DNA from: Eledone cirrhosa
Taxonomy: Eukaryota
Length of the DNA: 64,000 nucleotides
Assembly (NCBI GenBank): GCA_964016885.1
Contig: OZ024758.1
Coordinates: 16,926,001-16,990,000 of the forward strand
Reading direction: 5' to 3'
Below the pieces are notes generated by a model. It did not search any database. It was not told where the DNA came from and saw nothing but the letters and a program-made list of their open reading frames with translations. The translations under genes were made by a program, and so were the position numbers. Below are positions 22,796-62,066 of this stretch, piece by piece; within the stretch, counting starts at the first letter, position 1, and each line of letters starts with the position of its first letter.

Positions 22796-23996
22796 AGTAT
22801 TATCACTAATAATAACAAACAACAACAGTAACATCAACAACAAAATCTTAGTTTACTGGTTGATATAATATAGGGATTATAACTACTACATCTATATTTG
22901 TAAAAATAACAATTTCAACGCAAATAAGTTTCCAAATAACTACATTTGTTTACTTGCCTTTGTATTCAGGTTAGCAGGGGAAAATGAATTTGACTTGATG
23001 AAAATATCTGAAAAAATCGTATCAAATAAAATAGAATTTTGTCCATAGATTTATTTATTTATTTTACTTGAATTTATTTTCTTAAAGTAAGGGAGAGAAA
23101 ATTTTAAATAATGATTGAATTATCATATTTTAGAGAGAAAATTGATTTTACTATTGAAATTAAAATAGTACCTGAAGGATGTTAGGATATAGAAACTCAT
23201 TATTATTTTGAAACTCAACAGGCTGCTAACTGTCTAGTTTCTCACAATACCTTTACATAGTTCAATACTGGAAAAGTGTTTTATGAGGATTTTGGCATAC
23301 CATGCTGTTAATTAAATTTACAGTTAAATAAATTGTTTGGAATATCATATTTTGAGACTAGATGGTTCAGGGAACCATATCTTACTCATACATTTCATTT
23401 CTGGTGTAATTTCCTTGACTGTTTGCCCTATGTAGGACCAACTATTTTATAGAATGTATACAGTGCATTTTATAATAGAACCAATACTACCACTTACAGA
23501 AGGTACTGTGTGCATTTTATACTCAAACCAGCACTACCACCTACAGAATGTACTGAGTGCATTTTATACACACTAGAATGTTTTTCATCACACTGACACA
23601 TATGTGTATATGCGTGTGTATGTGTGTATCTGCATATGCATACATTTATTTGTATGTGTACATTAAAATAAATACGAAAACACAGATGCACTTACAAAAA
23701 TACTCATTCACAGACATACATTCACACAAACACACACACACACACGTACATTTACACAAACACACACATACACATACACTCACACACAGCATAGCAAATG
23801 GTATGCCAGCCGCTGTTTTGCTATTGTTTTTTCACCATCCCCTTCCTTCCTTTTATACGCACATACATTCACACAAAAACACACATGCACACACACACAC
23901 ATACATACATTCACGCAAACACACACACACACATACATTCACACAAATACACACACATCTTGTGTGACAGATTGAAGTTGCTCAAATTTATATATA

Positions 23997-24838
23997 GAAA
24001 ACCAGCACTACTATTTACAGAATATACTGGGTGAATCATATACTAGAACCAGCACTACTATTTACAGAATATACTGGGTGAATCATATACTAGAACCAGC
24101 ACTACCATTTACAGAATATACTGGGTGAATCATATACTAGAACCAGCACTACTATTTACAGAATATACTGGGTGAATCATATACTAGAACCAGCACTACT
24201 ATTTACAGAATATACTGGGTGAATCATATACTAGAACCAGCACTACTATTTACAGAATATACTGGGTGAATCATATACTAGAACCAGCACTACCATTTAC
24301 AGAATATACTGGGTGAATCATATACTAGAACTAGCACTACTATTTACAGAATATACTGGGTGAATCATATACTAGAACCAGCACTACCATTTACAGAATA
24401 TACTGGGTGAATCATATACTAGAACCAGCACTACCATTTACAGAATATACTGGGTGAATCATATACTAGAACCAGCACTACCATTTACAGAATATACTGG
24501 GTGAATCATATACTAGAACCAGCACTACTATTTACAGAATATACTGGGTGAATCATATACTAGAACTAGCACTACTATTTACAGAATATACTGGGTGAAT
24601 CATATACTAGAACCAGCACTACCATTTACAGAATATACTGGGTGAATCATATACTAGAACCAGCACTACCATTTACAGAATATACTGGGTGAATCATATA
24701 CTAGAACCAGCACTACTATTTACAGAATATACTGTGTGAATCATATACTAGAACCAGCACTACCATTTACAGAATATACTGGGTGAATCATATACTAGAA
24801 CCAGCACTACCACCTGCAGAATGTACTGGGTGGATTTT
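23997..24838 (+). repeat. 47-bp minisatellite, about 18 copies
   Basis: Unit accagcactac(t/c)atttacagaatatactgggtgaatcatatactaga; degenerate copies at 23440-23575. Confidence 0.95.
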
Positions 24839-59500: not shown

Positions 59501-62066
59501 CCAATTTACAGTGTGTACAGGGTGTGTTTTTAAGGGGCACCAATACTACCAATTTACAGTGTGTACTGGGTGTGTTTTTAAGTGGCACCAATACTACCAA
59601 TTTTCAGTGTGTACTGGGTGTGTTTTTAAGTGGCACCAATACTACCAATTTACAGTGTGTACTGGGTGTATTTTTAAGTGGCACCAATACTACCAATTTA
59701 CAGTGTGTACTGGGTGTGTTTTTAAGTGGCACCAATACTACCAATTTTCAGTGTGTACTGGGTGTGTTTTTAAGTGGCACCAATACTACCAATTTACAGT
59801 GTGTACTGGGTGTGTTTTTAAGTGGCACCAATACTACCAATTGACAGTGTGTACTGGGTGTGTTTTTAAGTGGCACCAATACTACCAATTTTCAGTGTGT
59901 ACTGGGTGTGTTTTTAAGTGGCACCAATACTACCAATTTACAGTGTGTACTGGGTGTATTTTTAAGTGGAACCAATACTACCAATTTACAGTGTGTACTG
60001 GGTGTGTTTTTAAGTGGCACCAATACTACCAATTTACAGTGTGTACAGGGTGTGTTTTTAAGTGGCACCAATACTACCAATTTACAGTGTGTACTGGGTG
60101 TGTTTTTAAGTGGCACCAATACTACCAATTTTCAGTGTGTACTGGGTGTGTTTTTAAGTGGCACCAATACTACCAATTTACAGTGTGTACTGGGTGTGTT
60201 TTTAAGTGGCACCAATACTACCAATTTACAGTGTGTACTGGGTGTGTTTTTAAGTGGCACCAATAATACCAATTTACAGTGTGTACTGGGTGTGTTTTTA
60301 AGTGGCACCAATACTACCAATTTACAGTGTGTACTGGGTGTATTTTTAAGTGGCACCAATACTACCAATTTACAGTGTGTACTGGGTGTGTTTTTAAGTG
60401 GCACCAATACTACCAATTTACAGTGTGTACTGGGTGTATTTTTAAGTGGCACCAATAATACCAATTTACAGTGTGTACTGGGTGTGTTTTAAGTGGCACC
60501 AATACTACCAATTTACAGTGTGTACTGGGTGTGTTTTTAAGTGGCACCAATACTACCAATTTACAGTGTGTACTGGGTGTGTTTTAAGTGGCACCAATAC
60601 TACCAATTTACAGTGTGTACTGGGTGTGTTTTTAAGTGGTACCAATACTACCAATTTACAGTGTGTACTGGGTGTGTTTTTAAGTGGCACCAATACTACC
60701 AATTTACAGTGTGTACTGGGTGTGTTTTTAAGTGGCACCAATACTACCAATTTACAGTGTGTACTGGGTGTGTTTTTAAGTGGCACCAATACAACCAATT
60801 TACAGTGTGTACTGGGTGTGTTTTTAGGTGGCACCAATACTACTAATTTACAGTGTGTACAGGGTGTGTTTTTAAGTGGCACCAATACTACCAATTTACA
60901 GTGTGTACTGGGTGTGTTTTTAAGTGGCACCAATACTACCAATTTACAGTGTGTACAGGGTGTGTTTTTAAGTGGCACCAATACTACCAATTTACAGTGT
61001 GTACTGGGTGTGTTTTTAAGTGGCACCAATACTACCAATTTACAGTGTGTACTGGGTGTGTTTTAAGTGGCACCAATACTACCAATTTACAGTGTGTACT
61101 GGGTGTGTTTTTAAGTGGTACCAATACTACCAATTTACAGTGTGTACTGGGTGTGTTTTTAAGTGGCACCAATACTACCGATTTACAGTGTGTACAGGGT
61201 GTGTTTTTAAGTGGCACCAATACTACCAATTTACAGTGTGTACTGGGTGTGTTTTTAAGTGGCACCAGTACTACCAATTTTCAGTGTGTACTGGGTGTGT
61301 TTTTAAGTGGCACCAATACTACCAATTTACAGTGTGTACTGGGTGTGTTTTTAAGTGGCACCAATACTACCAATTTACAGTGTGTACTGGGTGTATTTTT
61401 AAGTGGCACCAATACTACCAATTTACAGTGTGTACTGGGTGTGTTTTTAAGTGGCACCAATACTACCAATTTACAGTGTGTACTGGGTGTATTTTTAAGT
61501 GGCACCAATAATACCAATTTACAGTGTGTACTGGCTGTGTTTTTAAGTGGCACCAATACTACCAATTTACAGTGTGTACTGGGTGTGTTTTTAAGTGGCA
61601 CCAATACTACCAATTTACAGTGTGTACTGGGTGTGTTTTAAGTGGCACCAATACTACCAATTTACAGTGTGTACTGGGTGTGTTTTTAAGTGGCACCAAT
61701 ACTACCAATTTACAGTGTGTACTGGGTGTATTTTTTAGTGGCACCAATAATACCAATTTACAGTGTGTACTGGGTGTGTTTTTAAGTGGTACCAATACTA
61801 CCAATTTACAGTGTGTACTGGGTGTGTTTTTAAGTGGCACCAATACTACCAATTTACAGTGTGTACTGGGTGTGTTTTTAAGTGGTACCAATACTACCAA
61901 TTTACAGTGTGTACTGGGTGTGTTTTTAAGTGGCACCAATACTACCAATTTACAGTGTGTACTGGGTGTATTTTTAAGTGGTACCAATACTACCAATTTA
62001 CAGTGTGTACTGGGTGTATTTTTTAGTGGCACCAATACTACCAATTTACAGTGTGTACTGGGTGTA
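47561..62066 (+). repeat. 48-bp satellite array, about 14.5 kb and about 300 copies, with higher-order structure
   Basis: Unit ggcaccaatactaccaatttacagtgtgtactgggtgtgtttttaagt; variant monomers recur in blocks. Confidence 0.97.

Follow-up and report, generated by a model that had tools for sequence, protein, structure and literature searches.

The window analysed here, a stretch of 64,000 nucleotides from Eledone cirrhosa (contig OZ024758.1), holds four tandem arrays built on a unit of 47–48 bp. The locus raises the question of where these arrays came from, and whether each of them arose on its own. A sequence-only reading had described an RTE 3′ UTR as the seed of four independent satellites, all grown from one unit. 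Our scope is this single window, chosen because it contains arrays. TRF gave 17.7 copies of 47 bp at 24000-24832, 12.7 copies of 48 bp at 29916-30526, 8.3 copies of 48 bp at 44137-44536 and 302.4 copies of 48 bp at 47566-62065, matching the 18, about 13, about 8 and about 300 copies counted earlier; it also gave a small cluster of 2.5 copies of 47 bp at 23451-23569.

The consensus of each array was compared with five element units, with 2000 dinucleotide shuffles per comparison. The 29.9-, 44.1- and 47.6-kb consensuses were significant against all five (z 4.9–10.0, 0/2000 shuffles). The 24.0-kb consensus was significant against three of the five (z 4.3–5.0), reached just z 1.4 and 2.7 against the two RTE-2 units, and scored z 6.3 against the 47.6-kb unit. 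The similarity of monomers to the UTR, as first proposed, thus lies above that of shuffled sequence in 18 of 20 comparisons (z ≥ 4.3). An unrelated 39-bp array at 37331 served as control; with 0 of 12 comparisons significant, it was rejected as a fifth member. Counting full-length units alone, mean pairwise identity within arrays was 0.982 at 24.0 kb (17 units), 0.887 at 29.9 kb (10 units), 0.935 at 44.1 kb (7 units) and 0.965 at 47.6 kb (292 of 303 units), against 54–83% between array consensuses. Each array therefore has its own homogenised consensus, as had been noted, and homogenisation of this kind is a trait of satellites. The lengths, 0.4, 0.6, 0.8 and 14.5 kb, stay below those of classical satellites (tens of kb or more), and only the 14.5-kb array exceeds the 5-kb line drawn for expanded arrays in PMC7004042. 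The term satellite is thus apt for the 14.5-kb array, which alone nears that size; the other three are minisatellites of 0.4–0.8 kb.

LINE and SINE carriers of the unit

Two RTE-type LINE copies, both 5′-truncated, carry the unit in their 3′ UTRs. Copy 1 (17320..19575, minus strand) encodes a reverse transcriptase (RT) and a PHD finger, with one in-frame stop close to the C-terminus; its UTR holds the anchor followed by two full units and one partial unit of 46–49 bp (17461..17600, minus). An inverted copy of its 3′ 350 bp, comprising units, anchor and tail at 98% identity (19605..19950, plus), is a local duplicate of this end and no separate family. Copy 2 (32796..35066, minus) has a frame open up to its stop and likewise an anchor with two full units and a partial one (32928..33046, minus), so that the two to three units reported for both UTRs are indeed present. 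Because the amino-acid identity between the copies is 77%, copy 2 represents a second family. Read along the sense strand, each terminates in an (ATG)n-type microsatellite rather than poly(A). The PHD finger follows the RT core in the LINE proteins (Pfam). An AP endonuclease joined to RT in a single ORF is seen in relatives of the truncated window copies: P0004 and P0006 (53–55% identical; 1071 and 1102 aa) have Exo_endo_phos followed by RVT_1 in 2/2 scanned, and many among the 120 matches listed share this make-up. Pfam gave no match to an RNase H or a separate C-terminal domain after RT in P0002, P0004 and P0006, or in the 138-aa C-terminal piece of copy 1. From this architecture we class the LINEs as RTE-type, a provisional clade label.

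A SINE with a tRNA head shares the LINE 3′ end. One copy (7589..7920, plus) has one full and one partial unit, the anchor and a short tail, which matches a second LINE family over its final 50 nt; the other (40791..41123, plus), 97% identical, has two units and a partial one and the anchor, and lacks the terminal tail. The tRNA-like head was scored in the latter copy (Rfam tRNA, 38.7 bits against a cut-off of 29, 40796-40853); ARAGORN found no intact tRNA gene. The anchor region of the SINE is 96% identical to LINE copy 1, and its terminal 40 nt are 83–93% identical to the second LINE family. The number of units differs among young elements (1.3–2.3, with indels).

Exact copies of the 23-nt anchor lie at 17461, 19811(-), 29896, 32928, 41095(-) and 7838(-); the copy at 47537 has three mismatches, and those at 44117 and 13900 have four. 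Its presence before the 29.9-, 44.1- and 47.6-kb arrays (0, 4 and 3 mismatches, respectively) is thus confirmed. Copies of the unit form ten clusters in the window, nine of which border directly on a retrotransposon 3′ tail and share its orientation, which supports such a tail as the monomer source; the tail-less exception, at 24.0 kb, lies 430 bp away from an anchored cluster. No free units occur in the window away from these clusters at E ≤ 1. Anchor and first unit overlap at the anchor's end. Tails also occur without units: one LINE tail ends at the anchor (13760..13922, minus; a comparison locus), and a more decayed one lies at 13047-13181.

The arrays and their adjoining tails

The 29.9-kb array (29916..30526, minus; 89% pairwise identity) follows a SINE-type short tail with anchor (29803..29918, minus), which is 93% identical over 100 bp to the 7.9-kb SINE, and 98% over about 55 bp. 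At 44.1 kb, a LINE long tail with anchor and an internal 15-bp × 5.3 repeat (43933..44139, minus) leads into the array within the LINE 3′ UTR (44137..44536, minus), and an upstream UTR and ORF end of an RTE-2-like element follows (44540..44670, minus; z 13.3 against the copy-2 UTR/ORF end). With tail and ORF end in place, this array has element sequence on both sides, the only one of the four to do so; against four references, no element sequence was recognised beyond the 23.4-, 24.0-, 29.9- and 47.6-kb arrays. No target-site duplications were established for the insertions. In the 29.9- and 44.1-kb arrays all 19 distal units are closer to element unit 2 than to unit 1, and both first units are closer to unit 1.

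Does such an array grow at its site, or does it arrive already long? Some 29.9-kb units have a variant that also occurs in unit 1 of both copy 2 and the 44.1-kb element, young elements vary in unit number as described, and the array is diverse internally (11.3% pairwise) despite a young tail. These features suit an account in which length varies mainly inside the source LINE or SINE, by slippage or template jumps in reverse transcription, with the 8- and 13-copy arrays inserted near their present size and only the 18- and 302-copy arrays grown later. The VNTR of SVA, on a different carrier, is likewise a minisatellite that arises inside a retroelement and varies between copies. The excess diversity of the 29.9-kb array, however, falls within the confidence interval of the divergence between its tail and the SINE (7/100, 95% CI 3–14%); inheritance of a longer array fits equally well here. 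For the 14.5-kb array the account fails, in view of near-identical blocks of 0.8–1.7 kb behind a decayed and interrupted tail. We regard it as quite possible, at somewhat less than even chances, and observe that it is compatible with part of the explanation that we favour, growth after insertion.

At the 23.4/24.0-kb locus, a decayed LINE tail with anchor (23350..23442, minus; nhmmer E 0.004) scored z 8.0, 7.0, 3.9 and 3.1 against four tails, and a cluster of 2.5–3 diverged 47-bp units adjoins it (23441..23570, minus). The 17.7-copy array of 47-bp units (24000..24832, minus; 98% homogeneous) has no anchor of its own: directly before 24000 z was about 0 in 4/4 comparisons. The earlier statement that this array lacks a clear anchor is accurate at that position, but it missed the decayed tail and anchor at 23350-23442. 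The 24.0-kb monomer nests among the 23.44-kb units and the last unit of the array resembles unit 3 of that cluster; the array thus appears to be a local duplicate of the cluster, although the flank common to both is not significant on its own (450/2000 shuffles).

The largest array (47557..62066, minus; 302 copies of 48 bp over 14.5 kb, 96.5% pairwise identity) has an anchor at 47531..47559 (minus; profile positions 114-143). Its decayed distal LINE tail (47149..47252, minus; profile positions 18-121) has E 0.28 alone and scored z 7.6, 4.2, 3.5 and 0.6 against the four tails. An insert of about 280 bp (47255..47530, minus) interrupts the tail; a YADD stretch within it resembles RT weakly (RVT_1 E 0.014, below cut-off) and differs from copy 2. 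Within the array, blocks of 16–35 units recur at 99.4–100% identity, compared to 96.8% for random blocks, with offsets of 35, 46, 81, 108 and 110 units; a regular higher-order period is absent despite these nested block duplications. This array grew in place by such duplications. A coding repeat is unlikely, since 11 of 303 units, of 46–47 bp, shift the frame and every one of the six frames has at least 62 stops. Large blocks recurring at 99.4–99.7% identity 108–110 units apart could also mean that part of the 14.5 kb is an assembly artefact of duplicated reads or haplotypes. We hold this to be very improbable: the blocks are not identical, their offsets differ, and 25 of 51 unit variants are found once, as stepwise natural duplication predicts. 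An artefact would in any case alter the size of the array and not its origin.

Independence, growth and origin of the arrays

The four arrays trace to four separate insertions, with different tails and no common unique flank, and the evidence supports amplification of each on its own. The seed tail is of SINE type at 29.9 kb and of LINE type, with an ORF end, at 44.1 kb; the other two arrays belong to old tails and share one monomer clade. The notion of a single RTE 3′ UTR and one unit therefore has to give way to at least three related lineages, one with a tRNA-SINE-type tail, and neither RTE copy in the window is the parent of any array. The 23.4- and 47.6-kb loci were rejected as one segmental duplicate, as their common flank consists of dispersed SINE and CA repeats only. 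The tails of the 23.4/24.0- and 47.6-kb loci have a best identity of 60% and 71% to any other window tail, and the arrays there are 98.2% and 96.5% identical internally.

The monomer tree (48 columns; 15 of 38 inner branches open) groups unit 1 of the 29.9- and 44.1-kb arrays with element unit 1 (94/91). Forcing all 44.1-kb units together was rejected (AU p 0.034), as was a clade of the 24.0- and 44.1-kb units (p 0.016). Of five groupings compared beside an all-array clade, three were not rejected, the joining of all 29.9-kb units among them (p 0.47); these groupings had been named once the tree had been seen. One clade comprising every array monomer was not rejected either (AU p 0.235), and so array independence rests on the flanks: the claim of four independent arrays holds for the insertions, and the monomers alone leave a single origin standing. 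Together with the position of the two largest arrays in a starred clade apart from intact elements (99/94), this result would suit a pre-existing satellite captured by retrotransposons, or one founder for all arrays, with the UTR as passenger. Such an origin is highly unlikely in our view. Against it stand the decayed tails, with an in-register anchor, beside even the two old arrays, the overlap of first unit and anchor, the restriction of tail-less clusters to 24.0 kb, the flanks of the two old loci, which have only dispersed repeats in common, and the rejection of the 24.0- and 44.1-kb clade.

Array size was rejected as an age series. Size and tail decay correlate weakly (rho -0.61, p 0.11, n=8), with tail ages overestimated if the real source families lie outside the window, and the tail of the 13-copy array is young. 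The proposed stages of 2, 8, 13, 18 and 300 copies are not ancestors and descendants of one another.

We consider it probable that the arrays arise from the 2–3-unit tail duplication of this RTE-type LINE/SINE group, seeded by insertion and then expanded. Related LINEs and their partner tRNA-SINE carry two to three tandem units (46–49 bp) beside the conserved 3′ anchor. As the duplication is present in two LINE families (77% protein identity) and a SINE, it predates the arrays. Target-primed reverse transcription begins at the 3′ end of an element, so even short 5′-truncated insertions deposit tail, anchor and units, and a seed of two units is thereby in place wherever an element inserts. DNA-level slippage or unequal exchange would later have multiplied the distal units at some of these sites, leaving the anchor-proximal unit single. 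The old loci (23.4/24.0 kb and 47.6 kb) would stem from an older subfamily and have expanded long after insertion. The arrays are most likely neutral by-products.

The window is rich in tandem expansion of other kinds: the unrelated 39-bp array (47 copies), a tail-internal 15-bp repeat, SINEs arranged as dimers or trimers in several places, and TA tracts reaching 1.8 kb. With 4 of 11 anchor-bearing tails tied to arrays of at least 8 units, the stretch might be prone to expand any sequence, the LINE unit being nothing special. Four of the five arrays with at least 8 units of 39–48 bp come from the LINE-tail unit, however, and this shared source indicates a seed effect; we judge a purely regional cause unlikely. 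Regional and seed effects can both hold.

The unit may also owe its persistence to RNA structure. Two hand-named hairpins showed 70.5% pairing versus 63.4% in shuffled sequence (0/500) and 33–46% when slid, a structure read off the very sequences tested; an anchor-proximal 4-bp stem was matched by 31 of 500 shuffles, and one of ten folded regions had z below -2. At the Rfam gathering threshold the window gave one match, the SINE tRNA head, with no self-cleaving ribozyme or other known RNA in anchor or unit. For hairpins as a cause or constraint these results are no more than suggestive. It is conceivable, if rather doubtful, that the 48-bp unit is a duplicated hairpin module needed at the LINE/SINE 3′ end, that selection keeps the two-unit seed, and that every insertion is a dormant minisatellite able to ignite much later. 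Thousands of array births from one seed, replicate and datable, would then be present in the genome, and one could measure directly, in an animal, at what rate and with what lag satellites are born and how far this depends on the region.

Comparison with known systems

That a retrotransposon 3′ UTR can give rise to a satellite is already established, chiefly from work on DNA transposons and the LTR elements of plants, and our finding points to no new function or mechanism. PisTR-A in pea and nine Lathyrus sativus satellites grew out of tandem repeats that Ogre LTR retrotransposons carry in their 3′ UTR (PMC7004042). As here, short 3′ UTR arrays are dispersed with the element, a fraction has expanded, and sizes form a gradient; unlike here, the carrier is a plant LTR element with many unrelated monomers and with arrays that reach 174 kb and have expanded chiefly at primary constrictions (PMC7004042). 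The present carriers are a non-LTR LINE and a SINE, with one monomer family and a largest array of 14.5 kb. The features of an Ogre-type route recur, namely a monomer homologous to the element's short repeat and arrays at the same element position (9 of 10 clusters).

Satellites derived from LINE 3′ ends include Drosophila 18HT from HeT-A/TART, the common cetacean satellite from L1 and chicken HinfI from CR1 (PMC9659126). The monomer there, too, comes from a LINE-type 3′ region, with one satellite family per element as listed (PMC9659126), whereas here several separate insertions built their own arrays from a small UTR duplication. RTE does not figure in this review (0 occurrences as a whole word), and our literature search found none of tandem arrays derived from an RTE 3′ tail. 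Alu- and MaLR-derived minisatellites arise inside retroelements and vary between copies; the carriers differ, and these arrays are not reported there as growing to 14 kb from a LINE UTR (PMC9659126). Helitron/Helentron, pearl and DINE elements with tandem repeats in oyster and Drosophila likewise seed dispersed short, sometimes long, arrays from internal repeats, molluscs included; these are DNA or rolling-circle transposons with central repeats, in contrast to the reverse-transcribed 3′ UTR seen here (PMC10048060, PMC9659126).

RTE-clade LINEs with partner SINEs are known from Bov-B/Sauria (PMC13295347) and octopus RTE-2_OV (PMC9115989). They share with our elements the single-ORF endonuclease and RT (here in relatives), the microsatellite terminus and a SINE with the LINE 3′ end (PMC13295347, PMC9115989). 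The 48-bp internal unit upstream of the terminal microsatellite sets the present elements apart, as does the PHD finger that follows RT; the description of RTE-2_OV gives a C2H2 finger and a mostly microsatellite UTR (PMC9115989). To the known route of satellite birth the window thus adds an RTE-type LINE and its SINE as carriers. Seeds that have not expanded occur here next to four arrays, each amplified separately and bearing a tail as date stamp. If the pattern extends genome-wide, it would offer natural replicates for measuring the frequency and the delay with which two-unit seeds turn into long arrays.

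Tandem arrays and the elements that carry their unit

The 47-48-bp unit family occupies approximately 17.2 kb (27%) of this single window, which was selected for its arrays. TRF delineated the arrays at 23451-23569 (2.5 copies), 24000-24832 (17.7 copies), 29916-30526 (12.7 copies), 44137-44536 (8.3 copies) and 47566-62065 (302.4 copies). Two 5'-truncated LINEs on the minus strand carry the unit in their 3' UTRs, copy 1 at ~17320-19575 and copy 2 at ~32796-35066, each encoding RVT_1 and then a PHD finger; as their proteins are only 77% identical, they represent two LINE families. 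In full-length relatives, endonuclease and RT are both encoded by a single ORF of ~1,050 aa, an architecture that fits assignment of both copies to RTE. The PHD finger follows the RT core within the ORF in both copies (18039-19575 and 33193-35066) and in many relatives. At its 5' end, copy 1 runs into (TA)16, beyond which the 3'-terminal 350 bp of the element recur in inverted orientation at 98% identity (19572-19950); the element thus has a tail at either end.

The consensus of each array was compared with the five element units, using 2000 shuffles each. The consensuses of the 29.9-, 44.1- and 47.6-kb arrays (named by start position) were significant in all 15 comparisons (z 4.9-10.0). That of the 24.0-kb array was significant in three of five, and was weak against both copy-2 units (z 1.4 and 2.7). 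An unrelated 39-bp array, the control, gave 0 of 12. The homology between array and element units, as judged from the alignments, exceeds chance. The arrays exist, and the core idea of the sequence-only reading, that they originate in a retrotransposon-group 3' end, is borne out. The 39-bp array itself (37331-39171, 47 copies) is free of stops when read in one plus frame; two of the minus frames contain 1 and 5 stops, and one of these is Thr/Val/Pro-rich. The array could be a coding repeat exon.

A profile search of the whole window with the units returned 10 unit clusters and no match elsewhere at E ≤ 1; as the profile was trained on the window's own units, the result is informative only for the lack of matches elsewhere. 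Nine of the ten clusters adjoin, in the same orientation, an element 3' end (tail) and its anchor, a conserved 23-nt motif. Two of these tails had been overlooked, a decayed one at 23350-23442 (E 0.004) and, for the large array, a distal one at 47149-47252, where a ~280-bp insert separates tail and anchor. This insert (47255-47530) holds a weak RT-like YADD stretch, unlike copy 2, and has ~8 similar bases on both sides. Two further tails stop at the anchor, with no units. Of the 11 tails with an anchor, four are linked to arrays of at least 8 units, and no target-site duplications were established for the insertions. The 24.0-kb array has no anchor. Its monomer nests among the units of the small 23.44-kb cluster in the monomer tree (98/89), and its final unit is similar to the third unit there. 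The array thus probably arose by local duplication of the cluster; a flank common to both was not significant alone (450 of 2000 shuffles).

Of 16 LINE and SINE tails listed by hand between 7920 and 47110, 7 border on a TA run of at least 8 nt, compared with a 12% background (p 0.0014), and the 5' ends of both long LINE copies also lie in (TA)n. The pattern suggests that the elements inserted into TA microsatellites or that such microsatellites grew. Several long near-perfect palindromes beside TA tracts, found by eye at 6950-7380, 16370-16760, 17030-17310, 28400-28910 and 35737-36100, resemble MITEs or fold-back duplications. At 1619-2011, 5776-6143, 13964-14297 and 27737-28370 there are tandem dimers and trimers of 131-310 bp, several of SINE-like sequence, and the tail of the 8-copy array contains a further small tandem expansion at 43988-44065 (15 bp x 5.3).

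Distinct seeds and independent amplification

The arrays had been attributed to one RTE UTR, and this attribution failed. The tail adjoining the 29.9-kb array is short and of SINE type; across 100 bp it is 93% identical to a SINE with a tRNA head at 7589-7920, of which a second copy lies at 40791-41123. The SINE tail (7589-7920, 40791-41123, 29803-29918) is a chimera, with an anchor region from the copy-1 family and, over the final 40-50 nt, sequence of a second LINE family, fragments of which (8540-8930, 10790-11030, 43740-43935 and 45490-45890) are all devoid of units. The 44.1-kb array lies within a LINE UTR, between the tail and a stretch of UTR with the ORF end (z 13.3). The monomers of the 47.6-kb and 23.4/24.0-kb loci form one starred clade (99/94), and the flanks of these two old loci have only dispersed repeats in common; we interpret these loci as two separate insertions of an older subfamily, no intact member of which is present in the window. 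No array descends from either of the intact LINE copies.

In the monomer tree (42 rows by 48 columns; 15 of 38 inner branches open), units group by locus at 24.0 kb (96/89), at 47.6 kb (91/78) and, for distal units (those farther from the anchor), at 29.9 kb (89/79); the distal 44.1-kb units form no resolved group. A single clade of all arrays was not rejected (p 0.235), and of five further groupings, chosen after the tree was seen, two were rejected (p 0.034 and 0.016) and three were not. It is therefore the differing flanks, together with the consensus specific to each locus, that carry the case for independent amplification, rather than the tree by itself.

Polarity and timing of growth

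In the 29.9- and 44.1-kb arrays, unit 1, the one next to the anchor, clusters with element unit 1, and all 19 distal units of these arrays are nearer to element unit 2 (by 1-6 points). Hence, the distal unit multiplied while the anchor-proximal unit remained unmoved. At the old loci the arrays are 98.2% (24.0 kb) and 96.5% (47.6 kb) homogeneous, while the tails have decayed (at best 60% and 71% identity to other tails in the window); the latest expansion would thus be much younger than the insertion, unless the source families are simply missing from the window. The 47.6-kb array contains repeated blocks at offsets of 35, 46, 81, 108 and 110 units, and four of these measured 99.4-100% identity versus 96.8% for random blocks, from which we infer unequal exchange or slippage in place.

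The copy numbers 2, 8, 13, 18 and 300 had been taken as a series of stages. Array size tracks tail decay weakly (rho -0.61, p 0.11, n=8), and the 13-copy (29.9-kb) array stands on a young tail, so a simple series is not supported. As the internal diversity of this array (11.3%) falls within the divergence interval of its tail (3-14%), it may have arrived already long.

Mechanism and relation to known systems

As reverse transcription starts at the 3' end, even a short insertion includes the tail, the anchor and the units. A pair of neighboring units would then offer a substrate for misalignment that is absent from unique sequence, and later growth would follow ordinary tandem-repeat dynamics. 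Two small hairpins per unit, with some paired changes, are predicted to be possible. Folding was no better than that of shuffles in nine of ten regions, and Rfam gave no match for the units. That the hairpins form a functional module, with every insertion a dormant seed, is a doubtful proposition; were it true, thousands of datable replicate array births would be at hand.

In Lathyrus, nine of the 11 satellites trace back to short arrays within retrotransposons, mostly in the 3' UTRs of Ogre, and a fraction of these arrays expanded (PMC7004042). The satellite origins in the available portions of PMC9659126 are HeT-A, L1, CR1, Alu, MaLR and Helitron, with no RTE case among them, and Helitron-borne arrays are described in oyster (PMC10048060). 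RTE-BovB has expanded in cephalopods (PMC10294476), and octopus RTEs and SINEs are described in PMC13282606 and PMC9115989, the accessible parts of which make no mention of an array of this 48-bp-unit kind (for SINE and RTE background, see PMC4758252 and PMC13295347). No report of the 48-bp repeat was found in the portions of the open-access literature covered; supplements or repeat libraries could hold the family. The process is already known, and what is new is its carrier, an RTE-type LINE and its partner SINE.
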